A DNA stretch of 64,000 nucleotides from Escherichia phage UPEC06. A model generated the notes under the pieces. The model did not search any database and was not told the origin of the DNA. It saw nothing but the letters and a program-made list of their open reading frames with translations. This document shows positions 28,975-61,176 of this stretch, one piece after another; positions within the stretch are counted from its first letter, which is position 1; each line of letters starts with the position of its first letter. The stretch is from the sequence record MW250786. One strand, 5' to 3'. Made by a program: the position numbers and the translations under genes.

Positions 28975-29316
28975 TCAATAGTTATTTCTTAAAATTTCAA
29001 TCCCATATCGCTTAAAGACTTCCTTTGCTGCCATAAACTTTTGTGCGGCACTCGGATTTGAAGTGTGAACAAACAGAACAGCAGGATACAGGATCGGTTT
29101 GCCAAACACAAGCTTTTCTTCTAACATTTCTAAGCAGCGGTAACCTTCTTTTGAATCTTCACCGAGGTCATTGTCGAAATGCCATTCTGTTACCCGACGA
29201 TACATTTTATTAGGGTCCTCAAGGAACTCGATAAACTGGTCAGAATTTTTAAACCAGGTGGCATCATCATGCCCGTAATCTTTCGGATCTCTCAAATCAT
29301 CAAGCCAAATCTTCAT
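28975..29316 (-). CDS. hypothetical protein
   Basis: 113-aa ORF. Confidence 0.5.
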   Translation of the reverse strand: MKIWLDDLRDPKDYGHDDATWFKNSDQFIEFLEDPNKMYRRVTEWHFDNDLGEDSKEGYRCLEMLEEKLVFGKPILYPAVLFVHTSNPSAAQKFMAAKEVFKRYGIEILRNNY

Positions 29317-38508: not shown

Positions 38509-38816
38509 GCTGATTCCCCTTCTTCGGTATTATCAAGATAATGATACTGGTCGATTAAGAACACATAGTTCTTTACTTCTCCGTCCATGTAAACCATAAA
38601 AGTTACATATTTCTCATCATAGAACGGATCACCAACAACATAGATCTGGCAGATAGAATCAACACGTTTGTCAAACCACTGGATTCGCCAAGGCTCCTCA
38701 AGCATAGTCCAAGGTTCTTCAATCTTGTAGACCTGGCGCTTTGCGCCAGGAACTAGTGCTGCACGAATTTCGTCAGCGATCATAACATCATCAAAACTCT
38801 CAGAAAAACCCGACAT
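38505..38816 (-). CDS. hypothetical protein
   Basis: 103-aa ORF. Confidence 0.5.
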   Translation of the reverse strand: MSGFSESFDDVMIADEIRAALVPGAKRQVYKIEEPWTMLEEPWRIQWFDKRVDSICQIYVVGDPFYDEKYVTFMVYMDGEVKNYVFLIDQYHYLDNTEEGESA

Positions 38817-39925
38817 TAAATACCTACCCGTTTTAAAGTTGAGGCTAATGTTGTCTTATCATTTTCTGTACGTTTCATATAAACGCATTGGAAAATAACA
38901 GATGCCCATTGACCAGCAGAAAACTTACGAAGATTACCCAAATGATCCGTATATTCAACACCTTCGGGGAACCAACTCTTATATTGTTCAATAATAGCCA
39001 ACCACATACTCTTCTCGTCTGCACAAGGGGAGATGACCTGGAAAGCCGATGTTTCACCAAAGCGAAGACCCTCGAAGGTTTGATATGGTTTAACGTTATC
39101 CGCTGCATCACCGAATAGCATTTGGTAACCGAAGAATTTCTTACCCCAACCTTTTACCTTACCAGACTCCATCCAGATCTCACCCATAGAATCATCGATC
39201 AACCAAAGTTCAGGATGTTTCCATGTACGCTCTGTTGAGTCACGCATTGTGTTAAACAACAAAGAAGGAACCTGAACCTGATCCTTATCGAATGATGCCA
39301 CAATATGACTAAACTTTCCAGTCTTCCGATAATTTAAATATCCTTTATATCCAAGGATCGATAAATAATCATCTGCCTCAATACCATCCACAATGATCGC
39401 ACCATACTTCTGCTGAACATATCGACGAGTCTCCCCAAGCAACAGAGGACGTAAAGTATCTTCACGGTTACCCTTATAGATCTCAGGGGTCGGGAGTGCA
39501 AGACGGAAGTTACCACCCCCACCTAAAACACCAAGCCCGTTTGCTGATCCTACGTGTTCAAGAATAGCATTGATCTTAATCTTCAATAAGTGAAGACAGT
39601 TCTCCACTGGTTCTGGAGTTTGCTTTTCAATGATCTCGAAATCATCACGTGTCCACGGAGTAAATTCTTTTCCGCGAGCAACCGCTTTTGCTTCCATATT
39701 AATGTTTTGGTCTTTTAACCATCCACCAACAACATTCTTTTGGCGACCCCAAAACTCTGTTTTATTCTTAAACTCTTTCTCTCGGCCTGTTTCTTTGTGT
39801 CGAGCGATGATCGTTCGTTTTTCTGCACCAGCCGCAGCAACATAGCAAGTTTGATCGAGATCAAGTGCAACAACCACGTTGTCTTCGACAATACCTGACC
39901 AATCTTCAATTACCGGATAACCCAT
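38816..39925 (-). CDS. 5'-3' exonuclease / flap endonuclease (FEN-like)
   Basis: VVALDLDQT N-terminal motif and IIVDGIEADDYLSILG (cf. G-x-EADD). Confidence 0.5.
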   Translation of the reverse strand: MGYPVIEDWSGIVEDNVVVALDLDQTCYVAAAGAEKRTIIARHKETGREKEFKNKTEFWGRQKNVVGGWLKDQNINMEAKAVARGKEFTPWTRDDFEIIEKQTPEPVENCLHLLKIKINAILEHVGSANGLGVLGGGGNFRLALPTPEIYKGNREDTLRPLLLGETRRYVQQKYGAIIVDGIEADDYLSILGYKGYLNYRKTGKFSHIVASFDKDQVQVPSLLFNTMRDSTERTWKHPELWLIDDSMGEIWMESGKVKGWGKKFFGYQMLFGDAADNVKPYQTFEGLRFGETSAFQVISPCADEKSMWLAIIEQYKSWFPEGVEYTDHLGNLRKFSAGQWASVIFQCVYMKRTENDKTTLASTLKRVGI

Positions 39926-39938
39926 AGACCTCTCCTTA

Positions 39939-40442
39939 TTAAAATGCTTCGCCGTAATCTTCGTCTTCTTTAACTTCTTTTACTGGTCGCTTAAATTTGA
40001 AATCTTTACCCATGTATTCATACAGGTAATCGATATTCAAAGACCATTCTTGCTTACTTCTTTGTCGCCATAATGCCGCAGCTTGCATAATGTATTCTTC
40101 GGCAGCTTTCTTGTCAACACCGTTAACTTTCATAAAGTGTTTAACTGCACGAGTCATGTTACCAGTCGCTTGAGCACGACCGATATGTTTTACTTCGTGG
40201 CAAGGAGGGCATAAAGCAATCACGCCTCGTAACACAACTTCACCATTAACAAAGTCCCAGATTTCGTGAGCTTCTACAGGATGCTTACGCCCATTCCCAC
40301 CTTTGCCCCCACAAACCTCGCAAGTGTAGTTAGCTTCTTGATAGCACTTTCGACGAACTTTGTCCCAACCAGCTTGGGTAAGGTAAGATCGGAGGTTATT
40401 GTCCCAAGCTGTGCTTGGAATTAATTCGATAGTCAATTTCAT
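39939..40442 (-). CDS. HNH/Zn-finger nuclease-like protein
   Basis: CEVCGG..HPVEAHEIW..CPPCHEVKH. Confidence 0.4.
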   Translation of the reverse strand: MKLTIELIPSTAWDNNLRSYLTQAGWDKVRRKCYQEANYTCEVCGGKGGNGRKHPVEAHEIWDFVNGEVVLRGVIALCPPCHEVKHIGRAQATGNMTRAVKHFMKVNGVDKKAAEEYIMQAAALWRQRSKQEWSLNIDYLYEYMGKDFKFKRPVKEVKEDEDYGEAF

Positions 40443-40994
40443 TTAATATGCCTCACATTTACCAATCATATTCATAGCTTCAGAAACATCGATAATCATA
40501 TCCGTTGCTTCGTCCCAAGCTTTCCCCAAAAGATTCTCTCCATACCAGAAACTTTCATCATCTACCATAGGGTGATTCTCATCCATACCGATCCCCCATA
40601 TACGATCTCTCGGGGAGGCTTCTACAAACTTCAAACCCTTTTTACGGTAACCCACCGCCAGTTCACGAAGATTACCATTGTCGCACATACGACTATACAC
40701 TAAACGAGTGACAATATTAAATTTATTTTCATCCCAAACCGCCTGATCAAAATTCTTTACCTTACGACCTAGCGTTTTAGCACCTTGCGGCGTTACGGCC
40801 TTGATGATCCTTTCCGCTGAATCTTTGTCACCGAAAAGCATAGCCTTTTCATACATCATGTAATGCTCACCAGTGTGGAAATAAATCCCCTTCATCTTCT
40901 GGTCGAAGTTTGAAAACGGAGAGATCTCCTGGTAATGATTACTAAAAACATCACGATAAGAATAAAAGAACACATGTTTATCAGTGACTCGCAT
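40443..40994 (-). CDS. NADAR (YbiA-like, DUF1768) domain protein
   Basis: FSNHYQ, GIYFHTGEHYMMYEKAMLFGD, VEASPRDRIWGIGMD; ATG at 40994 with a GGAG RBS. Confidence 0.6.
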   Translation of the reverse strand: MRVTDKHVFFYSYRDVFSNHYQEISPFSNFDQKMKGIYFHTGEHYMMYEKAMLFGDKDSAERIIKAVTPQGAKTLGRKVKNFDQAVWDENKFNIVTRLVYSRMCDNGNLRELAVGYRKKGLKFVEASPRDRIWGIGMDENHPMVDDESFWYGENLLGKAWDEATDMIIDVSEAMNMIGKCEAY

Positions 40995-41130
40995 AAAAAC
41001 TCCTATAGATCCAATGCAGATATTGAAATTAAGAATAGCACTACCGAAAGTAATCCATCCGGCGTACTGAAAAATCCAATCCAGCACGCTCTTGTGAACA
41101 GGTAGAATGCCAGTATTAAAACGATAACCC

Positions 41131-41692: not shown

Positions 41693-41905
41693 TTAATTTC
41701 CTCCTCGATCTGTGTAGTGCTGTATAATCTCATTTAAACATTTGCCTGTCAACGAAAATTTCTTAGCTACATAGCACTCAGCAATGTGTTCTTTCAAATC
41801 TTTAGAGTCTGTGTAGCCCATTTCAACAATGAAGTGACGGATCTTCGTCTTGTCCTTATCATTTAAAGAATTGAAATAATCACTTTTAGAATCAATTATT
41901 CTCAT
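41693..41905 (-). CDS. hypothetical protein
   Basis: ATG at 41905 with an AGGAA RBS. Confidence 0.45.
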   Translation of the reverse strand: MRIIDSKSDYFNSLNDKDKTKIRHFIVEMGYTDSKDLKEHIAECYVAKKFSLTGKCLNEIIQHYTDRGGN

Positions 41906-42164
41906 TTTCAAGTTTCCTGATCTGATAGTAAAGAGAGTCAATGATCTCTTCGTTGGCCTTAATGTACATATCCCGTAAGAAAGGTTTCAACCCATCACGC
42001 AAAATATTTCCATCACAAGCATCGTTCAGGTATGGATGGCCTAGAGCCTCCCAGGCAGGTTGATTGGTATAAGTGCCCCAGCCTTGATTCATCATCTGGT
42101 TAAGGTGCTCGATTTGTTTTATCTTAAGCTGCAAAGCTTCAATAGTAATCTGTTTAATATCCAT
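41892..42164 (-). CDS. hypothetical protein
   Basis: 90-aa ORF. Confidence 0.45.
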   Translation of the reverse strand: MDIKQITIEALQLKIKQIEHLNQMMNQGWGTYTNQPAWEALGHPYLNDACDGNILRDGLKPFLRDMYIKANEEIIDSLYYQIRKLENENN

Positions 42165-42625
42165 CAGTAAAGGTCCTCAGAGTAAAGTTCTTTTTCATTA
42201 CCACCACGTTCAATACGTACTTGTCCAGCGTAAGTTGCAATAATCATTGCTTCTTCACGTGTCCAATAATTGCTATATTGGTCAATAAACCCTTGGTCAT
42301 CATCACAAACTTGTTGAGTAACTAATTGAGGTTTAACTACATCTAAAACTTCTGCCATATCTTTAGAATAATGACGAGCACCTGGAATAATAAGAGTTCG
42401 TCCATCTTTTAATTTAAAACGGTTGGCTGCGCAGACAATTCGTCGTTGATACTTTTGGTTTTCATCCCAATACAGAGTCTGCCAACAGATTTCAGGAACT
42501 TCATCTAAAACATTTTGTTCTGTATATTCACCACCGTAAGAAGCTAATTTAGCAGCCAGACTTTCCGGAGTCTCACGCGACAAAGCTTTATCTAACAGAG
42601 CTAAACGTTCTTTAAAAGTTTTCAA
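42164..42625 (-). CDS. hypothetical protein
   Basis: 153-aa ORF; TTG start with an AAAGGGG RBS. Confidence 0.5.
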
Positions 42626-42818: not shown

Positions 42819-42885
42819 TTTATCTCCTGTTGTTGGTTGATATGGGTATTATACAGAACTGGAGGCAGGTGTCAAGAGATATATA

Positions 42886-42912
42886 AAGAAAACCGCCCCG
42901 AAGGGCGGTTTA
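42886..42912 (-). terminator. Intrinsic terminator (aaccgccc-cgaa-gggcggtt); third copy of this hairpin
   Basis: Identical hairpin; A/T-rich flanks on both sides. Confidence 0.65.
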
Positions 42913-44417: not shown

Positions 44418-45194
44418 TTACATACCCTCCAGGTTTGCTTCAAAATAAGTGATTGGCTTCATGATCTTGCCATTCTTATCTTTAAATACTACACGATCCA
44501 TACCATCACCACCTTTTACGATGCTTCCCTTTACACCTTGATAACGGTTACGGTTACGCAGTTCAATCTGTTCAGCTTCCAAACGCAACATGGCATCAAG
44601 ATCAAAATCAGCTTCTGCAAAAAAGTAATACGTCTTGTAGAAACATTCCGTAAATTCTTTCACGGTTGGGATCTTGGAATCATTTGAATCCAAAACCTCA
44701 TTTAAAGCACGACGAGCATTAAAGTTGGAGTTCTGCATGATTGCAACAACCGCCATAACGATCCCGTTTGTATTGTCACTCTCGATAAATTGATCAAGAG
44801 TTCGATAAAGCGAAGTCAGATTATACGTACCCATATTGTCAGCAGGACAGATGTTTTCAGAACCACCTTTTAGGAAGTTGTAATATGATCCAACTACAAA
44901 CAAGTCGCAAAGTGCATCTATGATTTCCTTACGATTCTTTTTAGTTAAACCAAGATCATAAAGTTCATTGTACTCTTCCATAACAAGAGTTTTTTGGAAT
45001 TTTGAAATATCTTCAGAGAAGTCATGAAAACCACGAGCAACAAAATTCCAATTTTTTACTCGCTCTGCTGCTTCCCGAAAGAAGCTATTGCCCTTAACAT
45101 CAATCATCTCGGAAATAAAGGTTTTCTGATCAGCACTCAATTCATTGTATTTCAATTTAATCTCCTTTCGTTTAACTTGGGGGCCATTATACAT
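44418..45194 (-). CDS. hypothetical protein
   Basis: 258-aa ORF. Confidence 0.55.
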   Translation of the reverse strand: MYNGPQVKRKEIKLKYNELSADQKTFISEMIDVKGNSFFREAAERVKNWNFVARGFHDFSEDISKFQKTLVMEEYNELYDLGLTKKNRKEIIDALCDLFVVGSYYNFLKGGSENICPADNMGTYNLTSLYRTLDQFIESDNTNGIVMAVVAIMQNSNFNARRALNEVLDSNDSKIPTVKEFTECFYKTYYFFAEADFDLDAMLRLEAEQIELRNRNRYQGVKGSIVKGGDGMDRVVFKDKNGKIMKPITYFEANLEGM

Positions 45195-45209
45195 GACCCC
45201 TTATCATTG

Positions 45210-45671
45210 TCAACAGTCTTTATAAGTTTCTAGTGCAACTTTACGGGCTTCATCCTTTTCAATCTCAAACTTAGATCGTTTGTCCTTTCTTGAAGCCTTG
45301 TTACGTCGCTTAACGATTCGACGACAGGTGTGGTAAAGTCGTGTACCTTCATAATCATTCATCCAGAACAGATCGCCATTCACGAAGAGAGTATCGGAGA
45401 TAATACCACAAGCCTTTTCAATGTAAGTAACCTTACCTGTGACCGTATCGACAATTGTATAGTCAACATACCAAAGACTATCGTTATCCTCGCACGGGTC
45501 TTGTTGGCCTTCAGGAACAAAAACTCCAGAATGTATCTCAAATCGAGGAGATCCTTTACGGATCAGCTTCAAGATTTTACCTGCTGGCTTACGAGTTAGC
45601 AGTACCGGAACACCTAAGACTACTGAAAGGTAAAGTGTAATCCCTACAAACCCAATAATTAAAGCTTCCAC
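45210..45671 (-). CDS. hypothetical protein with an N-terminal TM anchor
   Basis: IIGFVGITLYLSVVLGVPVLL near the N-terminus. Confidence 0.5.
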   Translation of the reverse strand: MEALIIGFVGITLYLSVVLGVPVLLTRKPAGKILKLIRKGSPRFEIHSGVFVPEGQQDPCEDNDSLWYVDYTIVDTVTGKVTYIEKACGIISDTLFVNGDLFWMNDYEGTRLYHTCRRIVKRRNKASRKDKRSKFEIEKDEARKVALETYKDC

Positions 45672-52219: not shown

Positions 52220-52300
52220 GCGGGTGTATCTCAACGGTCTTCTAAACCGTCGTTAATCGAGTAATTGGAGTATGAAGGTTCGAGTCCTTCCTCCCGCGCT
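52220..52300 (+). tRNA. tRNA-like element: acceptor stem and T-arm present, core non-canonical, anticodon unresolved
   Basis: T-arm gaagg-ttcgagt-ccttc; 9-bp terminal inverted repeat tagcgcggg/cccgcgcta; internal hairpin acggt-cttctaa-accgt. Confidence 0.3.
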
Positions 52301-52317
52301 AAGTTCTTTTGAATATA

Positions 52318-52392
52318 GGCCCTGTAGCTGGACGGTTCAAGCAAGCGACTCATAATCGCCAGACGGTGGTTCGATTCCACCCAGGGCCACCA
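52318..52392 (+). tRNA. tRNA-Met (anticodon CAT; could be initiator, elongator or Ile-lysidine type)
   Basis: Acceptor ggccctg/cagggcc, anticodon loop ctCATaa, T-arm ggtgg-ttcgatt-ccacc, discriminator A, encoded CCA. Confidence 0.7.
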
Positions 52393-52525
52393 TATGAAGT
52401 CGGGTCGCTCCCGATAAGTCGTCGGACTGATGTTCCCTGACTACGAGTTCCCTCAACGATAACGACGTAGATCACAGCAGAAACGGCGCACCCTATTTCA
52501 TTTCTTAATACATTTCAATAAGTTC

Positions 52526-52554
52526 TTGACATAATCCTATTATACTGCTAATAT
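52526..52554 (+). promoter_or_regulatory. Sigma70-type promoter: -35 TTGACA, 17-bp spacer, -10 TAATAT
   Basis: TTGACA at 52526-52531 and TAATAT at 52549-52554. Confidence 0.6.
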
Positions 52555-52581
52555 AGTTATATCTACTGAATTGAGGTGTTT

Positions 52582-52956
52582 ATGGCTAAAGCTGAAATCG
52601 TTACTCGAAAACGCGGTCGGCCTACTACAGAGGAAAGCATTGCAATCAATACTGAGAGAGCAATTCTTCATGCTCGTTCCGAGTTTGCAAGACTTACTCC
52701 TCAAGCAATTAAAACTCTGGAAGGTCTACTGACTTCCGGTACAGAGAAAGTTAAAGAAACTACTGCGAAGTATATTCTTGAGCAAGCTGAAAAGGCAAAC
52801 AATCTGTACACGATGGAAGATAATGAAGAGGATCTGGCAGGAGGAACTACTTCTGCAAATTCAGAAACTCATCAAGGCCCTTCTGACGCATTTAAGGATG
52901 CTATTCCATTAACTACTCAGATTCGTGAGTATAAAATGGCAGAAGGTGAAGATTAA
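52582..52956 (+). CDS. small basic-N-terminus, acidic-C-terminus protein; possible DNA-binding protein or terminase small subunit
   Basis: ATG at 52582 with a GAGG RBS; KRGRPT motif; function not established. Confidence 0.5.
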   Translation: MAKAEIVTRKRGRPTTEESIAINTERAILHARSEFARLTPQAIKTLEGLLTSGTEKVKETTAKYILEQAEKANNLYTMEDNEEDLAGGTTSANSETHQGPSDAFKDAIPLTTQIREYKMAEGED

Positions 52957-52976
52957 GGCTCGCAAGGGCCTTTATT
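52955..52976 (+). terminator. Possible terminator hairpin (GCAA tetraloop) after the 52582-52956 gene
   Basis: Stem aaggctc/gggcctt with gcaa loop followed by tttatt. Confidence 0.35.
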
Positions 52977-53210
52977 AAGAAGTTTTCTTTAAGGTAGTTC
53001 TTACTTTAGCAGAGTAAATCTTCGGCAAGTGGCGGTAACCACTTTACCGATACCTCATAGTTAGTGTTGCGAACACTGGCTACCTTAAAGAGAATTTAAC
53101 TCGTCGAATAAGGAAGATGCTGATCTCAAAGTGAGGTTACTTACCGCAAGGGGTGTGCATAGACTCCCGCTTCCGAATAGACTATGTGGCGAGATGTATT
53201 TGGGGACGTA

Positions 53211-53561
53211 ATGAATAATAAAGACCAAGGTAATGCAGGAGAGGCGTTTGCCATCTATCATTACACCTCATCAGGCCACAAGGTGTCAAAGCCGTTGTTT
53301 GAAAACTGCCCATACGACCTTATCGTTGATAAAGACGGTTGTTTGTTAAGGGTACAAGTTAAAACATCGCGTGTCAAAGCGCCAAGTGGAAGGTATGAGG
53401 TTTCTTTGAGGACCAACGGTGGTAACCGAAGTGGTATAGGAAAGAGCAAAAATATCTCAAGCTCGGAAGTAGACCTACTTTTCGTTCTTATTGAAGACGG
53501 GAGGTATTTTGAAATCCCTTGCTCAGAGGTAGATGGTCAGACTTGCGTGACCGTAGGATAA
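53211..53561 (+). CDS. restriction-endonuclease-like (PD-(D/E)XK-type) nuclease, possible homing endonuclease inside the tRNA island
   Basis: GEAF..YDLIVDKDG..RVQVKTS resembles E...PD...(E/Q)VK; ATG at 53211 with a GGGGA RBS. Confidence 0.35.
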   Translation: MNNKDQGNAGEAFAIYHYTSSGHKVSKPLFENCPYDLIVDKDGCLLRVQVKTSRVKAPSGRYEVSLRTNGGNRSGIGKSKNISSSEVDLLFVLIEDGRYFEIPCSEVDGQTCVTVG

Positions 53562-53562
53562 G

Positions 53563-53649
53563 GCATTGTTAGACCGTAGGGGTAGCGGGGCAGACTGTAA
53601 ATCTGCTGTTCATAGAACTCGGGTGGTTCGACTCCATCACAATGCACCA
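53563..53649 (+). tRNA. tRNA-Tyr (anticodon GTA), type II with a long variable arm
   Basis: Acceptor gcattgt/acaatgc, anticodon arm gcaga-ctGTAaa-tctgc, 15-nt variable arm, T-arm ggtgg-ttcgact-ccatc, discriminator A, CCA. Confidence 0.65.
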
Positions 53650-53652
53650 AAT

Positions 53653-53727
53653 TTTCCGTTAGGCTTATAGGATAAGATTCCCGCAACGTCTCGTTGTGAT
53701 ACTGGTTCGAATCCAGTACGGAAACCA
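53653..53727 (+). tRNA. tRNA-like element: perfect acceptor stem and T-arm, no canonical anticodon arm
   Basis: tttccgt/acggaaa acceptor and actgg-ttcgaat-ccagt T-arm; the middle does not fold into a standard D/anticodon arm by eye. Confidence 0.3.
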
Positions 53728-53733
53728 AATTAA

Positions 53734-53815
53734 TGTGCGGGTAACATAATTGTCACGGTGGCAAGCTGGCCTCCAAAACCAGTCGTAAGGAGTTCGACTC
53801 TTCACCTTCACGCCA
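53734..53815 (+). tRNA. tRNA-like element, possibly tRNA-Trp (CCA anticodon loop ctCCAaa) with an over-long D region
   Basis: Acceptor gtgcggg/ccttcac (1 mismatch), anticodon-like loop ctccaaa, T-loop ttcgact, discriminator G, CCA; 82 nt. Confidence 0.35.
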
Positions 53816-53819
53816 AATA

Positions 53820-53896
53820 CGGTGTATAGCGCAACTTGGTAGCGCGAATGCTTTGGGAGCATTAGGTTCGAGGTTCAAATCCTCGTACACCGACCA
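53820..53896 (+). tRNA. tRNA-Pro (anticodon TGG)
   Basis: Cloverleaf folded by eye: C1-G72, D-arm gcgc/gcgc, anticodon arm aatgc-ttTGGga-gcatt, T-arm cgagg-ttcaaat-cctcg, discriminator A, CCA. Confidence 0.75.
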
Positions 53897-53901
53897 AATA
53901 T

Positions 53902-53977
53902 GCGGGTATAGCTCAGTTGGTAGAGCTTCTGATTTCCAATCAGAATGTCACGAGTTCGAGTCTCGTTATCCGCTCCA
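53902..53977 (+). tRNA. tRNA-Gly (anticodon TCC)
   Basis: gcgggta acceptor, D-arm gctc-agttggta-gagc, anticodon arm tctga-ttTCCaa-tcaga, T-arm acgag-ttcgagt-ctcgt, discriminator U, CCA. Confidence 0.8.
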
Positions 53978-53985
53978 AACAAAAA

Positions 53986-54060
53986 TGGGGATTAGCCAAG
54001 CGGTAAGGCATTGGATTTTGATTCCAACATTCACTGGTTCGAGTCCAGTATCCCCAGCCA
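53986..54060 (+). tRNA. tRNA-Gln (anticodon TTG)
   Basis: U1-A72 acceptor tggggat/atcccca, anticodon arm ttgga-ttTTGat-tccaa, T-arm actgg-ttcgagt-ccagt, discriminator G, CCA. Confidence 0.75.
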
Positions 54061-54936: not shown

Positions 54937-56424
54937 ATGTCTGCTACATTCGCACCAGCGAGTCGAAAGCAACAAATGGTTCTCGAATCTGACGCACAAA
55001 TAATGGTTATCGGTGGTGCAGCGGGATCAGGTAAGTCCTACCTTCTCCAGTTGATGCCTTTGTTGATTGTAAACGACCCTAGAACAGCGTGTATCATGTT
55101 CCGTCGTACCGTCCCTCAGATTCGTGGACAAGGTGGTTTGTTCGACAAAGCTAAGGATATTTACAACCAACTACCTCCGGTAGTTAAGCCTAAGTTTAAA
55201 GAAAATGAAATGACTGCAACATTTCCTAACGGAGCTACCGTTAAATGGCAGTCTATGCAACACGTAAGCGATAAATTCGATATTCAGGGATTGGAGTTTA
55301 CCTTTATCGGGGTTGACGAAGGAACACAGTTCGAATGGGAACAGTTGGAATATATGATGTCCCGTTTGCGTTCAAACTCAAAATATCCTTCCCGTATGGT
55401 AATAAGTTGTAACCCCGATCCTGATCATTATCTTCGTAAGATGGTTGACTGGTATCTCGATAAGGATGGATATCCTAATCCTGAAAAAGACGGTGTTATT
55501 CGTTATTTCGTCCGTGTGGATGACCAATACATGTGGGGAGACTCAGTAGAGGAGTTGAAGAAACGTTATGGTAAGAAATGTAAGCCCGTATCGTTCACAT
55601 TCATATCTTCCACTATTTATGACAACCCGCCAATGCTTATCAACAACCCCGAATACCTTGCTCAGTTGGAAGGTCTTAACGAGGTTGACCGTGCACGACT
55701 TCTTCATGGTAACTGGGATGCTCGTCCGCAGGGTGCAAACTATTTTAAACGTTCTTTCCTCAAAAATGTAGATCATCTCCCGCTTAATTGCGACAAGGTT
55801 AGATCTTACGATAAAGCAGGTACAGAGCGTTCCACAGGTAACAAAACACCTGACTTCACGGCAGGTATAGGTGTAGCGCGAGATCAGGATGGGTTCTACT
55901 ACCTGTTCGGTGATTATTGTGATGAATTCGTTGATACTGGCGATTGGTCCACTGGACAAGCCGGACGCTTCTGCAAAAAAGCAGGTGAGCGTGACAAGAT
56001 TATTCTTAAACAGGCAATACATGACGGAGATGACGTTAGGATCATCTTCCCTGTTGACCCTGGTCAAGCAGGTCTATCCGAATTTACTACATCTTCTCGT
56101 GAGTTATTGAATCAAGGGTTCATGGTTGAGAAAGACCCAACACCAGGTAACAAGAAGAAGCTTGTACGCTTCTCTCCGTTCGCTAACTTAGCACAGAACG
56201 GATTTGTACGGATTGTTGAGAAATCTTTTCCTATGGACACATTAGAAGCTTTATTGAAGGAACTTGAATCTTTCGACGGTGAGAGGTCAACTGGATCACG
56301 TAAGGACGACTGGGTGGATGCCATCTCTTCGGGTATTAACTATCTGGAGAAAACAGAAATTGTCCGTGCTGTTCCAATACCACGACCTCACGCCCCTACG
56401 ATGTATTCCAGGTATAGACGATAA
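54937..56424 (+). CDS. terminase large subunit
   Basis: Walker A GGAAGSGKS near the N-terminus; 495 aa; AAGGAG RBS; immediately upstream of the portal gene. Confidence 0.85.
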   Translation: MSATFAPASRKQQMVLESDAQIMVIGGAAGSGKSYLLQLMPLLIVNDPRTACIMFRRTVPQIRGQGGLFDKAKDIYNQLPPVVKPKFKENEMTATFPNGATVKWQSMQHVSDKFDIQGLEFTFIGVDEGTQFEWEQLEYMMSRLRSNSKYPSRMVISCNPDPDHYLRKMVDWYLDKDGYPNPEKDGVIRYFVRVDDQYMWGDSVEELKKRYGKKCKPVSFTFISSTIYDNPPMLINNPEYLAQLEGLNEVDRARLLHGNWDARPQGANYFKRSFLKNVDHLPLNCDKVRSYDKAGTERSTGNKTPDFTAGIGVARDQDGFYYLFGDYCDEFVDTGDWSTGQAGRFCKKAGERDKIILKQAIHDGDDVRIIFPVDPGQAGLSEFTTSSRELLNQGFMVEKDPTPGNKKKLVRFSPFANLAQNGFVRIVEKSFPMDTLEALLKELESFDGERSTGSRKDDWVDAISSGINYLEKTEIVRAVPIPRPHAPTMYSRYRR

Positions 56425-56439
56425 CTGAGGGGAATTATT

Positions 56440-57972
56440 TTGAAGAAGAAGAATAAAGGTCGCAACACACAGGTTCGTAAAGCGACGAGCGAAGAATTAA
56501 ACGTTGCTCGTTTACGAATGAGTGAGCAAGGTACTTTTGCTTTAGCTAAGGTTCAGGTAGAAACTGAACGCATGAAAGCTGAAGAAATTAAATGGCCTCA
56601 ATTGATCGGTACAGTTGAAGCTATGAAACAAGATGCTACGGTAGCGACTGGTCTTGATATGCTTTACACTTTCGTAGAGAAAGCATTCAAGGACTTCAAA
56701 GTAATCCCTGGCAAATCTAAAGAGTCTCAAGACGCAGCAGAGTTCATTACCTTCTGCCTTCGTAACATGGAAGGTCAAACCCTGCGTCAATTTGCCCGTG
56801 ACGCTGCCACATTTAACGAATACGGCATCTCTGTAGTTGAGAAGGTATATACTCAGATCCAGACTGGTGAATATGCAGGACGATTTAAGATTAAAAACCT
56901 TGCATTCCGTCCACAGGCTTCTCTGAGTCGTAAAAACCCTCTCGTGTACAGCGATGATGGTTCTCGTGTTATCGGTGTTAAACAGTCACTTGATTCTTTC
57001 AAGAACTACACAGATAGTCCACTTGGTGCTTCTATGAGTGGCCTGACTGGTTCTCGTAGAGGGAATGATGTTGTTATTCCAGCAAACAAGCTGATGATCA
57101 TGACGACTGGCGGTTCTTCTTCTCAAGCGCTCGGCGTTTCTCCGCTGGTTGCTTGTTACCGACCTTGGCGTGAAAAAGTTCTTATCGAGAACCTTGAAGT
57201 TGTTGGTGCTACGAAAGACATGGGTGGTGTTATCGAACTGAAGATTCCTTCTGCTATTCTTAACAAAGCAGCTATCGACCCTTCCAGTTACGAAGCTGAG
57301 ATGGTTCAAGGTCTAATGATGGATGCCGCAAACGCCCACTCAGGCGAGCAATCTTTCTTTATGTTACCGTCTGACGTTAAAGATAACTCACCCCTGTATT
57401 CAATGTCTCTGAAGGGCATTGACGGTATGGGTAAACAGTACAGTACTCGTGACCTGATCAGTGATCGTAAAAAATCAATCCTTGATCGTCTGGGCGCGGG
57501 ATTCCTGAACGTAGGTAATGATGCCTCTGGTTCATACAACCTGTCGGAATCAAAACAAACTATCCATACTCAATTTGTACAACGTGTTAATGAAATTATC
57601 GCTGAAGCACTGAATGAAAACCTGCTCCCTCAGCTTCTGGCTCTGAACGGTATTCGTCTGGCAGAAAAAGAAATGCCATTCGTTAAATTTGGTCAGATCG
57701 TTGATACAGACATGGAAGGTTTCTCTAAAGCGGTTCAGCGTATGGGTGCTGTCGGCTACTTGCCTAAGACACCGGAAGTTATTAATCGCATTCTTGATGT
57801 TCTTGGAATCGATTATCAAGTTGGTGAAGATATTTCGCAAGAAGAACTTATGCTTCTCCTTGGAGATAATACCAGTCGTTCTGGCGATGGCTTTGCACAG
57901 GGGACTTCTGGAAACGGGACTGCAAAGATTAGCGGAACAAGAGATAATTCAGTTTCTAATTTAGAAAATTGA
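56440..57972 (+). CDS. portal protein
   Basis: 510 aa; TTG start with a GAGGGG RBS; position between terminase and head genes. Confidence 0.7.
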   Translation: MKKKNKGRNTQVRKATSEELNVARLRMSEQGTFALAKVQVETERMKAEEIKWPQLIGTVEAMKQDATVATGLDMLYTFVEKAFKDFKVIPGKSKESQDAAEFITFCLRNMEGQTLRQFARDAATFNEYGISVVEKVYTQIQTGEYAGRFKIKNLAFRPQASLSRKNPLVYSDDGSRVIGVKQSLDSFKNYTDSPLGASMSGLTGSRRGNDVVIPANKLMIMTTGGSSSQALGVSPLVACYRPWREKVLIENLEVVGATKDMGGVIELKIPSAILNKAAIDPSSYEAEMVQGLMMDAANAHSGEQSFFMLPSDVKDNSPLYSMSLKGIDGMGKQYSTRDLISDRKKSILDRLGAGFLNVGNDASGSYNLSESKQTIHTQFVQRVNEIIAEALNENLLPQLLALNGIRLAEKEMPFVKFGQIVDTDMEGFSKAVQRMGAVGYLPKTPEVINRILDVLGIDYQVGEDISQEELMLLLGDNTSRSGDGFAQGTSGNGTAKISGTRDNSVSNLEN

Positions 57973-58038
57973 TCTTTGATTTAAATCAGACTCTTGCAAA
58001 ACGAATCGTTCAGTGTTAAAATAAATATCACGGGAGCA

Positions 58039-58611
58039 ATGATGGAAAACATTACTATCTCCGACCTTCCTTCACAAACCTATCTGTCCCGAATCCAAAA
58101 GGGACGGGCTGTGAAAAAGGCCAATGAGCTACTTAAACAGGGCTTCAATAAAGAGGCTTCTATTTCTGGAGCCATTGGCTCCGTTCTTGTCCAAAAAGCT
58201 GCACAGAAAGAAGAGATGATTTCTTACGAGATCATTTACGAACCTGATACGCCGGATGCTCATGGACAATGGATGAGCAAAGAGACACTAGTTAAAGCAC
58301 AGCAAGATTTCAAGAAAGCTCAAGAAATCGGTGCGGTAACTGAGAACTTGTACCACTTGGTTGATACCGAAGCATTCAAGATCGTAGATCATTGGATTCA
58401 GCCAGAAATTGATGTAACTGTCACACAAACAGGAGAAATCATAAAAGCAGGGTCATGGGTAGCAAAGGTTCAATATTCACCTGAAGCATGGGAGTTAAAG
58501 AAAGCTGGCATCGTCGGTGGATTATCTCTTCAGTGCGGTGGTATGTTGAATGAGGAAACAAATGAGCTATCCGATCTTGATTTCAGTATCGAATTGGAAG
58601 AGGAAGAATAA
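58039..58611 (+). CDS. head morphogenesis protein, putative XkdF-like prohead protease
   Basis: YEPDTPDAHGQWMSKETLVKAQQDF resembles the XkdF-family EPD..D..G motif; sits between portal and scaffold. Confidence 0.4.
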   Translation: MMENITISDLPSQTYLSRIQKGRAVKKANELLKQGFNKEASISGAIGSVLVQKAAQKEEMISYEIIYEPDTPDAHGQWMSKETLVKAQQDFKKAQEIGAVTENLYHLVDTEAFKIVDHWIQPEIDVTVTQTGEIIKAGSWVAKVQYSPEAWELKKAGIVGGLSLQCGGMLNEETNELSDLDFSIELEEEE

Positions 58612-59705
58612 TGATTAAGACCCTTATAGAGAAAGGTCGCCAGATTAAATCTCGCGGAATTGCTCTAACTCACCGAGATCAAGGCTACAGTGCGAACAAT
58701 CGACACGTAAGCCTCCTCACTAAATCTGACATTGACCCAAGCAAACTGACGGTTGATGTTATCAAAGCTCTTGAGCAAGTTCAAGTAACTATCAGTATGG
58801 AAGAGTTCTTACGTCGCTTCTTCCACATGTATTACGATGATGCAGAGTTACTTACTAAGCTGATGGGCTTCACAACTACCTTTGAAGACGAATACGCGGA
58901 TAAAGACCCTGAAGACTTGGATTCTTATACTGCTGATTACGTTAAACGTCATCAAGAATATCTCGATGAAAAACTCGAAACTATCTCCATTATCAAAAAA
59001 GCAAAAGAAGGTGAAGATCTTTCCCTGATCGAACGCTTTGAGTTAATTAAGACTCGTAAGCAATTCGAAGACGGTTGTAAAGAATTAGCTTTGGATTTTG
59101 GTGATGAATCTGAATTACGCAAACCAGAAACTGGTGAAGTAGTTAAATCAGCTACTAAGCCTGAACCTGTAAGCTCCGCTGGAGCGACCACAACCATCAA
59201 GGAGACTCCTGTGGAAAAAGAAGTAGATGTAACCAAGTCCCAACAATTCATTGATCTGATGAAAGCTAATGAAGCGTTGATGGCTCAGGTTGAAGGTATG
59301 AAAGAAACCTTCACCGCTGCTCAAGAAATCGTTAAAGCTCAGGCTGTTGCAAAACGTGAAGTTGCCTTGAACAAAGCTGCAAGTTTTGGTTTTGTTGCTG
59401 ATGACCAACGTGAAGCTGTTGCTGACCTGATCGAAGACCCAGCTAAAGCATCTGTTGTTGCTGTGCTGGAAAAAGCTGCTGCTGCTCTTAAAGAGAAAGA
59501 CGAAGCTCTCGTCGCTAAAGATGCAGAAATCGAAGAGATCAAAAAATCCTTCGCTGACGGCAAAGAAGTAGGTGCTGATGGTCAACTGACTGAAGTTGCT
59601 AAAGGCTCTGAAGACGCTCAGGCTCGTTTGAACCGAGTAATCGCAGAACGTGCAGCAGAGATCGCTAAGGCTGCTAACGGCAATGCTGAATTTATTAACG
59701 CCTAA
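58611..59705 (+). CDS. scaffolding protein
   Basis: 364 aa; Ala/Glu/Lys-rich predicted coiled coil; upstream of decoration and capsid genes. Confidence 0.65.
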   Translation: MIKTLIEKGRQIKSRGIALTHRDQGYSANNRHVSLLTKSDIDPSKLTVDVIKALEQVQVTISMEEFLRRFFHMYYDDAELLTKLMGFTTTFEDEYADKDPEDLDSYTADYVKRHQEYLDEKLETISIIKKAKEGEDLSLIERFELIKTRKQFEDGCKELALDFGDESELRKPETGEVVKSATKPEPVSSAGATTTIKETPVEKEVDVTKSQQFIDLMKANEALMAQVEGMKETFTAAQEIVKAQAVAKREVALNKAASFGFVADDQREAVADLIEDPAKASVVAVLEKAAAALKEKDEALVAKDAEIEEIKKSFADGKEVGADGQLTEVAKGSEDAQARLNRVIAERAAEIAKAANGNAEFINA

Positions 59706-59725
59706 TTATTGAGGAAACGAATAGA

Positions 59726-60157
59726 ATGGCTAAAGCACATGTTGTAACTCTCGAAGGTAACTACTCTGATATCGTACTGGGCCGTGTTGTTGCATTTGGT
59801 GACACTGGTTGGAACTTTGAAGAAGTAGAAATGGATTATACTGCTGATCTGGTCGCAGGTCTGCTGGTTAAAGCTGATGGTACTCCGGCTGCTGTTGCAG
59901 ACGCTGCTGACGTTTACGGTGTTCTGGTTGACCGTAAAGTTCTGCCTGGTGTTACCAAGCATGACGGCGCTACCCCGATGGCTGGTGAGAAGCTTCCTAT
60001 GACTATCGCTGTTCGTGGTCTGACCCTGAACGCAACCAAACTGGTCTACGCTGACGGTACTGCAATTGACGATGCTGGTCGCCTGGCTCTGTCTAAAGCT
60101 GGTAACCAAGTAACTGATCGTGTAGTAGCTACCGAATTCCTCGGCGCTGTCCTGTAA
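59726..60157 (+). CDS. head decoration protein
   Basis: 143 aa, immediately upstream of the major capsid gene (lambda D/E-like order); strong codon bias. Confidence 0.5.
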   Translation: MAKAHVVTLEGNYSDIVLGRVVAFGDTGWNFEEVEMDYTADLVAGLLVKADGTPAAVADAADVYGVLVDRKVLPGVTKHDGATPMAGEKLPMTIAVRGLTLNATKLVYADGTAIDDAGRLALSKAGNQVTDRVVATEFLGAVL

Positions 60158-60180
60158 CTTTTTCGAAGGAGAATATTTAA

Positions 60181-61176
60181 ATGCAAAATGGTGATTTTCA
60201 AATCCTGGATTACACTGGCCTGATCTCTACTCTGCCGCGTGTTGATACCCTGCTTCAAAGCATGAACCTGTTCACTGAGAACTTTGGTCGTACTACTATC
60301 GCTAAAATCGAACGTCGTGATGACGGTGCTGGTCAGATCAATGCTGTACAGCGTGGTAGCGTTCGTCAGCACCTGGGTAATGATCGTAAAAAGATCGTCA
60401 ACCTGAATATCCCGTTCTTCCCTCTGGACCGTTCTATCGACCGTGCAGACATTCAGAACTTCCGTGAATTCGGTACTGACAACGCTCCGGCAACTGTTGA
60501 AGCTGAAGTGGCTCGTCACCTTGCTAGAATTCGTCGCAGTCATGCAGTTCTGAAGTCTAAAGCAATGTACGCTGCTCTGAAAGGTACTTCCTGGTCGCCA
60601 AATGATCCGGTTTGTGATTACGACTACTACGATGTTTGGGGTGTAACCCAGCAGACTGCTGACGTTGACTTCACCGCTCTGGCTATTGACCCGATTGAAG
60701 TGCTGGAAGCTGAAGCTCGTGCACACATCATCGATTACGCTGGTGACCAAGGTGACAACTACGAGATCGTCGTTATGGCATCCCGTCAGTGGTTCTCTGC
60801 TCTGATCGCTCACCCGCAGGTAACTGGTGCATATTCTCAGTACCCTTCTACTCAGGAAGTCCTGCGTCGTCGTCTGGGCGGTAATGCCAACAACCGTATC
60901 TTCGAACACAAGAACATCCTGTTCATCGAAGACATTTCCGGTAACATCCCTGCTGGTGAAGCATACATCTTCCCTCGTGGTATCGATCGTATGTTCGAAA
61001 TCTATTACGCGCCGAGCGACACTCTGGAAGGTGCTAACCAAGTAGCTCAGGAACTGTATGTATTCTTCAAAGAATCTCAGTACCTGCGTGAAGCGAAGAT
61101 CGAATCTGAAACTTCCTTCCTGACTGTTAACAACCGTCCTGAACTGGTAGTTAAGTCTGTTGGTAAGTTTGAATAA
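60181..61176 (+). CDS. major capsid protein (lambda gpE-like)
   Basis: 331 aa; strong codon bias; GAAGGAG RBS; strong terminator directly after; head-module position. Confidence 0.75.
   Translation: MQNGDFQILDYTGLISTLPRVDTLLQSMNLFTENFGRTTIAKIERRDDGAGQINAVQRGSVRQHLGNDRKKIVNLNIPFFPLDRSIDRADIQNFREFGTDNAPATVEAEVARHLARIRRSHAVLKSKAMYAALKGTSWSPNDPVCDYDYYDVWGVTQQTADVDFTALAIDPIEVLEAEARAHIIDYAGDQGDNYEIVVMASRQWFSALIAHPQVTGAYSQYPSTQEVLRRRLGGNANNRIFEHKNILFIEDISGNIPAGEAYIFPRGIDRMFEIYYAPSDTLEGANQVAQELYVFFKESQYLREAKIESETSFLTVNNRPELVVKSVGKFE

Follow-up and report, generated by a model that had tools for sequence, protein, structure and literature searches.

A stand-alone NADAR protein in the replication region of Escherichia phage UPEC06 as a candidate eraser of DarT1-made guanine ADP-ribose

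DarT1 toxins ADP-ribosylate the N2 position of guanine in DNA, a modification that the NADAR antitoxin DarG1 undoes (PMC11543638). NADAR proteins also occur in phages, such as gp30.3 of T4 (AdfN-T4, from 'anti-DarT factor NADAR'), which strips the DarT1 marks and which the phage needs in order to grow on hosts with DarTG1 (Johannesman et al., Nat Commun 2025, PMC11825919). A stretch of 64,000 nucleotides from Escherichia phage UPEC06 (sequence record MW250786), called the window here, contains a gene for a NADAR-family protein, and the locus raises the question of whether this protein also removes ADP-ribose from phage DNA and which host defence it would thereby counter. Judging by sequence and by analogy with characterised relatives, we consider it probable that the protein is an AdfN-type, orphan-antitoxin-like counter-defence enzyme, which is expressed early and erases DarT1-made guanine ADP-ribose from the phage DNA. 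The two parts of this reading differ in strength: confidence is high that the protein would hydrolyse guanine-linked ADP-ribose (G-ADPr), and moderate that DarTG1 would be its physiological target.

The family assignment is clear. An earlier note on this DNA had called the open reading frame (ORF) a NADAR protein from three NADAR/YbiA-like motifs, and all three are present in the product, FSNHYQ at residues 17-22, EHYMMYEKAMLFGD at residues 43-56, and RDRIWGIGMD at residues 129-138. The Pfam NADAR profile (PF08719) confirms the call with an E-value of 3.8e-37 and a score of 128.5 bits against a cut-off of 35.1, residues 14-163 corresponding to profile positions 10-158 of 163. NCBIfam TIGR02464 (128.8 bits against a cut-off of 73.7) and phrog_1017 (E 4.3e-47) are matched as well, and all of these matches are far above chance. 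An AlphaFold2 model built from 38 homologues, with a mean predicted local distance difference test score of 97.4 and a predicted template modelling score of 0.91, adopts the α+β fold of NADAR proteins and contains a long C-terminal helix (155-182). Loss of the terminal helix by truncation cripples the AdfN of phage RB69 (PMC11825919).

We transferred the ADP-ribose contacts of the Phytophthora nicotianae NADAR (PnNADAR) structure 8BAU (PMC11543638, Schuller et al.), in which the PDB chain numbering equals the native numbering plus 2, to the window protein via a phmmer alignment. The equivalents are E43, K50, K73, G76, R77, F82, Q84, W87, K91, E125, D130, and W133; in PnNADAR, F82 is replaced by Tyr, Q84 by Asp, and K91 by Arg. 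Eight residues, namely E43, K50, K73, G76, R77, W87, E125, and D130, are invariant across the 38-sequence alignment. The superfamily is characterised by a Glu/Lys pair seven residues apart (E43/K50 in PnNADAR, E88/K95 in E. coli C7 DarG1, and E36/K43 in T4) together with an acidic residue at the distal ribose, and the window protein has this set as E43, K50, and E125. Accordingly, the catalytic residues on which the NADAR call depended are retained. K73 is the counterpart of K115 in E. coli C7 DarG1, which is dispensable for catalysis but needed to counteract DarT1 in cells (PMC11543638). On the sequence and the model, the window protein is almost certainly a folded, catalytically competent NADAR.

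The gene was read on the minus strand from an ATG at 40994 to a TAA stop at 40445..40443, giving a product of 183 amino acids. The mechanical ORF extends further 5' to a GTG at 41087 (214 aa), which is the form used in the GenBank annotation of phage A5-4. We rejected this longer form and take ATG 40994 as the true start because it is preceded by a Shine-Dalgarno sequence (Table 1), is also used in the annotation of the closest relative, phage vB_EcoM-LTH01 (LTH01), and yields the N-terminus M(R/K)(V/I)TD(K/E), which is kept among the NADAR homologues of six phage groups. The gene is intact and typical of the genome in GC content (40.8%, against 41.3% for the window), and a search of the 64-kb window for a second NADAR copy found none. 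The 136-nt intergenic gap on its 5' side (40995-41130) is 97% (132/136) conserved with LTH01, about as much as coding sequence, and a scan of this gap for promoter-like and Rfam matches found neither.

To place the protein among known NADARs, it was compared with AdfN-Bas60 (bas60_0111 of phage PaulScherrer), AdfN-Bas32 (bas32_0066 of phage IrisVonRoten, located via hmmsearch), AdfN-T4, YbiA, and the rpoD-linked E. coli NADAR. The identity was 39% to the rpoD-linked protein (E 2e-34) and 37% to AdfN-Bas60 (E 2e-29), with lower values for YbiA (~26%), AdfN-Bas32 (24%), and AdfN-T4 (about 20-23%). In neighbour-joining trees with 100 bootstraps, the window protein falls in a clade with 100% support that includes the NADARs of Certrevirus (phiTE), Seunavirus (SalP219 and SSE121), and Klebsiella Vequintavirinae-like phages. 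The sister of this clade, at 55% bootstrap, is a phi92/Phapecoctavirus clade that includes AdfN-Bas60, while YbiA and AdfN-Bas32 group together outside the window clade and T4 is very distant; there is no family-level relation to AdfN-T4 or AdfN-Bas32. The full catalytic set is common to the window protein, AdfN-Bas60, and AdfN-Bas32. The residue comparison and the trees therefore indicate that the window protein belongs to the general stand-alone NADAR family rather than to the DarG1, T4, or YbiA type.

Among the characterised phage proteins, AdfN-Bas60 of Escherichia phage PaulScherrer (Justusliebigvirus) offers the closest comparison. Both are orphan phage NADARs of 183 aa with the N-terminus MR(V/I)TDK, both carry E43, K50, K73, R77, W87, E125, and D130, and both match the PADLOC model PDC-M42C. 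They differ in that AdfN-Bas60 carries W133Y and, after helix 3, an insertion of 7 residues, is encoded beside FtsH-like/ATPase genes instead of replication nucleases, and comes from the Stephanstirmvirinae instead of the Vequintavirinae (the phi92-like phages are named Vequintavirinae in PMC11825919). Moreover, AdfN-Bas60 is experimentally validated, whereas the function of the window protein is predicted from its sequence. The stand-alone NADARs of P. nicotianae (PDB 8BAU) and E. coli (rpoD-linked, WP_001183948) are cellular proteins, in contrast to the phage-borne window gene in an early replication operon. In E. coli 2022H048 (NZ_AP029609.1), a stand-alone NADAR gene lies between rpoD and mug under the PGAP name 'ybiA', although it belongs to a family other than that of K-12 YbiA; this insertion was seen only in the lowest-identity one of 40 matches spread over 5,426 genomes and appears uncommon.

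The resemblance to the other types is more limited. AdfN-T4 is likewise a phage-encoded orphan NADAR with the catalytic Glu and Lys pair, and its anti-DarTG1 role was proven by deletion and transposon sequencing. However, the T4-type 'phage NADAR' family has His in place of E125, and in AdfN-T4 the K73 position is Gln and the D130/W133 loop is missing; the window protein retains E125, K73, and the loop. AdfN-T4 is also fully active only with the help of a T-even factor, and it is unable to remove cytidine-linked ADP-ribose (C-ADPr). With DarG1 (G. lovleyi 8BAT and E. coli C7), a distant type, the window protein shares the superfamily fold and the predicted hydrolysis of ADP-ribose from guanine N2, but it has neither the adjacent darT1 nor the N-terminal extension, and the catalytic Asp (D171) that replaces Glu in DarG1 is absent. 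YbiA (PDB 2B3W), an N-glycosidase of riboflavin intermediates, has Ala where the window protein has K73; its gene belongs to the LexA-controlled dinG operon, and it gives cells no protection from DarT1.

The published experiments bear directly on the function. Each of the four NADAR types associated with E. coli hydrolyses G-ADPr in vitro (Cihlova et al., PMC11125620); indeed, every NADAR tested to date does so, although protection against DarT1 in vivo varies (PMC11125620). As the residues are conserved and every tested NADAR has the activity, the window protein would be expected to act on G-ADPr as well. The role of adfN-T4 was independently confirmed by HIDEN-SEQ (transposon sequencing), and AdfN-Bas32 from a T5-like phage and AdfN-Bas60 from a phi92-like phage, described as unrelated phage NADARs, also neutralise DarT1, their ectopic expression rescuing RB69, T5, and Bas25 (PMC11825919). 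None of AdfN-T4, AdfN-Bas32, and AdfN-Bas60 is active against DarTG2 (PMC11825919). The anti-DarTG role suggested in the earlier note thus fits the published phage NADAR experiments (PMC11825919), but it should be narrowed from DarTG at large to the guanine-specific DarTG1 because no tested NADAR reverses the thymidine marks of DarT2. The window gene is an orphan in the same sense: it belongs to a lytic Septuagintavirus and has no cognate DarT toxin, Pfam scans of its neighbours and of the window ORFs of at least ~100 aa having found no gene of the ADP-ribosyltransferase (ART)/DarT families.

In the mechanism that we propose, the NADAR would be made early, together with the replication, recombination, and nucleotide-metabolism proteins of the phage. 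Upon infection of a DarTG1-carrying cell, DarT1 would ADP-ribosylate guanine N2 in the phage DNA and block replication. The NADAR would then bind the ADP-ribose, with K50, R77, W87, K91, and W133 contacting the phosphates and F82 stacking on the adenine, while E43 and E125 would cleave the N-glycosidic bond that links the distal ribose to the base. Unmodified DNA would be restored, and phage replication could go on. The domain, the fold, the residue conservation, the genomic setting, and the purifying selection described below were established in this analysis; from the characterised relatives, we infer the G-ADPr/DarTG1 function for the Vequintavirinae NADAR clade.

Several points weigh against this reading. 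Conserved catalytic residues are no guarantee of protection in vivo: YbiA and the T4 NADAR hydrolyse G-ADPr in vitro yet leave uninfected cells unprotected from DarT1, and only partial rescue is seen with the rpoD-linked E. coli NADAR (PMC11125620). AdfN-Bas60 was validated by ectopic expression only, with no deletion in its own phage (PMC11825919); moreover, the window protein is only 37% identical to it, and the sister link between the two clades is weak at 55% bootstrap. In the binding site, the proximal-ribose contact D86 of 8BAU is replaced by Q84. Finally, the same genome carries RNA-repair-type genes, for cREC, RlaP, and a CCA-adding enzyme, a setting that has also been proposed for NADARs.

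Among the alternatives, a broader substrate range survives best. A 2026 study found that enzymes in both the 'NADAR' and the YbiA family also take C-ADPr off DNA and RNA, which DarG1s and the T4 NADAR do not. Since the tested members of the general stand-alone family erase both G- and C-ADPr from both nucleic acids, as the T4 and DarG1 types cannot, the window protein might be a broad-spectrum nucleic-acid de-ADP-ribosylase in the replication module, shielding the phage against several ART-based defences, including undiscovered ones, rather than a dedicated anti-DarTG1 factor; by analogy, we regard this as a minority possibility, at about one chance in five. The same idea worded as a rival, in which the protein acts on G- and C-ADPr in DNA and RNA and protects against several ART toxins, appears slightly less likely again: E. 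coli has no known defence in which cytosine or RNA guanine is ADP-ribosylated, and such an eraser overlaps with the preferred anti-DarT1 role and is compatible with it.

It is improbable that the protein degrades small immune signals or toxins derived from ADP-ribose (of the cyclic ADP-ribose type) instead of repairing DNA. Such a role was proposed from gene contexts by Iyer et al. 2022, and the location in an early-type unit would suit it, but the activity has been demonstrated for no NADAR, the phage NADAR experiments all point to G-ADPr in DNA, and no SLOG, Macro, Nudix, or DUF4326 partner is fused to the window gene or lies beside it.

There is very little to recommend a YbiA-like housekeeping role, in which an N-glycosidase would clear reactive intermediates of the riboflavin pathway during infection. 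The name of TIGR02464, 'riboflavin biosynthesis intermediates N-glycosidase', and the GenBank labels of relatives, often YbiA-like or GTP cyclohydrolase II, do point that way; however, TIGR02464 acts essentially as a generic NADAR-domain profile, whose match alone does not assign a function. YbiA is a distant protein outside the window clade, hardly any phage NADARs fell within the YbiA branch in the work of the LeRoux group, and no YbiA-type context, whether phylogenetic grouping, nearby riboflavin genes, or a RibA/RibD fusion, was found for the window protein. Equally remote is a role in RNA repair, in which the NADAR would deal with the ADP-ribose by-products of Tpt1/KptA-type end healing alongside the phage cREC, RlaP, and CCA-adding enzymes: earlier comparative work tied NADAR to RNA repair by context and genes for all three (cREC_REC at 28975..29316) are present in the window, but they lie 11-35 kb from the NADAR gene, outside its unit, and a Pfam scan of the neighbours found neither KptA nor an RNA ligase adjoining it.

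If the NADAR is a counter-defence enzyme against DarT1, the pattern of its maintenance should reflect its usefulness on some hosts only. The gene differs from its counterpart in LTH01 by 20 synonymous and 2 non-synonymous codons and from that in A5-4 by 25 synonymous and 7 non-synonymous codons, with the catalytic residues untouched in both comparisons; it is under purifying selection. In rV5-type Vequintavirus (CarlMeissner), a C5-methyltransferase gene and a homing endonuclease gene occupy the corresponding position and the NADAR gene is absent from it, which makes it an accessory gene in this subfamily. The gene of the sister phage A7-1 (A7_1, OP795442.1 130060-130703) has lost 1 nt outside any homopolymer; past about codon 96 the reading frame is shifted, and the gene is annotated as two ORFs, A71_67 and A71_66. 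Over its first 180 nt, the A7-1 gene matches the window at 100% identity, which points to mosaic recombination.

Either a natural knockout or an error of assembly could account for the A7-1 deletion. The phage was isolated on K-12 MG1655 and also propagated there; if the frameshift is real, growth on this host means that the NADAR is dispensable where DarTG1 is lacking. The allele parallels the adfN frameshift of RB69, which renders that phage uniquely DarTG1-sensitive (PMC11825919). Absence from the rV5-type phages and disruption in A7-1 are what would be expected of an anti-defence gene that is of use only under some conditions.

The surroundings of the gene are consistent with early expression. 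The window region is 92-94% identical at the nucleotide level to the E. coli phages vB_EcoM-LTH01, A5-4, A7_1, A73, and W70. Of these, W70, A5-4, A7-1, and A73 form the genus Septuagintavirus of the Vequintavirinae, described in 2024 (PMC11370258), and LTH01 matches the window at the same level. The supplementary table of that description lists 'A5-4_183 NADAR' under 'Miscellaneous', with no function discussed (PMC11370258); a hit for 'NADAR' in its main text proved to be the author name Nadareishvili and not the domain. A minus-strand block at ~0.3-49.8 kb of the window holds early, replication, and nucleotide-metabolism genes, including those for ribonucleotide reductases, ThyX, a dNMP kinase, a ligase, exonucleases, Endo VII, and a RuvC-like resolvase, and a plus-strand block from ~50 kb holds tRNA, terminase, portal, and capsid genes. 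The features around the NADAR gene are given in Table 1.

Table 1. Features of the NADAR gene and its surroundings, in window positions
Feature	Position	Strand	Basis and remarks
5'-3' exonuclease gene (FEN/RNase H-like), replication module	38816..39925	-	phrog_107, E 6e-65; GIEADD motif
HNH homing-endonuclease-type gene	39939..40442	-	phrog_5200, E 4e-71; its ATG abuts the NADAR stop (TAAATG)
NADAR-family ADP-ribosyl glycohydrolase gene (adfN-like, predicted), 183 aa	40443..40994	-	Profile matches, residues, fold model
Shine-Dalgarno sequence AGGAG	41000..41004	-	5 bases 5' of ATG 40994; direct sequence reading
Consensus sigma-70 promoter-like site	42848..42875	-	TTGACA, 16-nt spacer, TATAAT, 12/12; pattern scan
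Terminator-like hairpin, 9 pairs, 6 G-C	42890..42911	-	Just 5' of the promoter-like site; pattern scan

The promoter-like site probably serves as early promoter for the transcription unit to which the NADAR gene belongs, and the hairpin would bound this unit on its 5' side. A minus-strand pattern scan between the promoter-like site and the NADAR gene found no terminator-like site. This arrangement suggests early expression driven by the host RNA polymerase. A second perfect 12/12 sigma-70 consensus promoter is found at 45186-45213 (minus strand); the two lie within 2.4 kb, and each heads a run of small genes, as would fit strong early promoters in phages of this group. AdfN-Bas32 (MZ501075.1 61641-62090, IrisVonRoten) is annotated only as 'hypothetical protein' between the genes for RNase H and thymidylate synthase, with other early genes near, and thus likewise lies in a nucleotide-metabolism/replication neighbourhood.

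The HNH-like nuclease and the FEN-like exonuclease that the earlier note had placed beside the gene are both supported by profiles. The order after the NADAR gene is HNH, 5'-3' exonuclease, a small ORF, RuvC-like resolvase, and Endo VII, and the order NADAR, at least one HNH, exonuclease, small ORF, and RuvC-like gene is kept in phiTE, KaOmega, SalP219, and a Klebsiella phage. In Certre-, Seuna-, Klebsiella-, and Septuaginta-type phages alike, the exonuclease is kept as a neighbour downstream of the NADAR gene. Its 'FEN-like' label is based on PHROG 107 and the GIEADD motif, as the match to Pfam 5_3_exonuc_N (PF02739) is sub-threshold (E 0.08) and a PDB sequence search with the exonuclease gave no match. 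The HNH gene was considered as a functional partner of the NADAR and rejected, since its copy number varies among relatives from one (window and LTH01) to two (A5-4 and Klebsiella K54_rec5) and three (phiTE); it is therefore a homing endonuclease or selfish element.

The concept of an anti-DarTG NADAR was already published in 2024-2025 and is not new. As related phage proteins have been shown to act in this way, the finding is sound but not surprising, and the gain is incremental, orphan NADAR antitoxin mimics in phages being already established. Modestly new are a NADAR clade that extends across the Vequintavirinae, the constancy of its place within the replication module, and the natural frameshift allele. 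If the anti-DarT1 role holds, AdfN-type counter-defence would reach another lineage, the Septuaginta-, Certre-, Seuna-, and Klebsiella-type Vequintavirinae, whose subfamily infects Escherichia, Salmonella, Klebsiella, Cronobacter, and Pectobacterium. It would then help to predict which of these phages grow on DarTG1-carrying strains, with the rV5-type absence and the A7-1 frameshift as natural comparison material.

Other parts of the window deserve mention. Three small minus-strand genes at 41693-42625 are homologues of arn.1, arn.2, and arn.3 of T-even phages, with 85-86% nucleotide identity to Mosigvirus and Tequatrovirus over ~0.9 kb, a level well beyond that elsewhere in the genome; the stretch looks like a cassette recently exchanged between Tevenvirinae and Septuagintavirus. 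The GenBank name 'anti-restriction nuclease' on these homologues appears to be propagated, as the genes are not Arn itself. The cREC_REC gene (28975-29316, minus strand) encodes a 113-aa protein that matches the Pfam domain of that name (cyclic-phosphate-processing receiver) with an E-value of 2.4e-18; it sits between the genes for two aerobic ribonucleotide reductase subunits, and the domain is predicted to process ADP-ribose or RNA-repair intermediates. The minus strand of 1-20700 encodes the RlaP 'RNA repair pathway DNA polymerase beta family' protein, the CCA-adding enzyme (PolyA_pol and HD domains), and two proteins with RCC1/WD40_RLD repeats. On the plus strand, five tRNA genes are arranged in two clusters at 52220-54057, just 5' of the terminase/portal/capsid module at 54937-61176.
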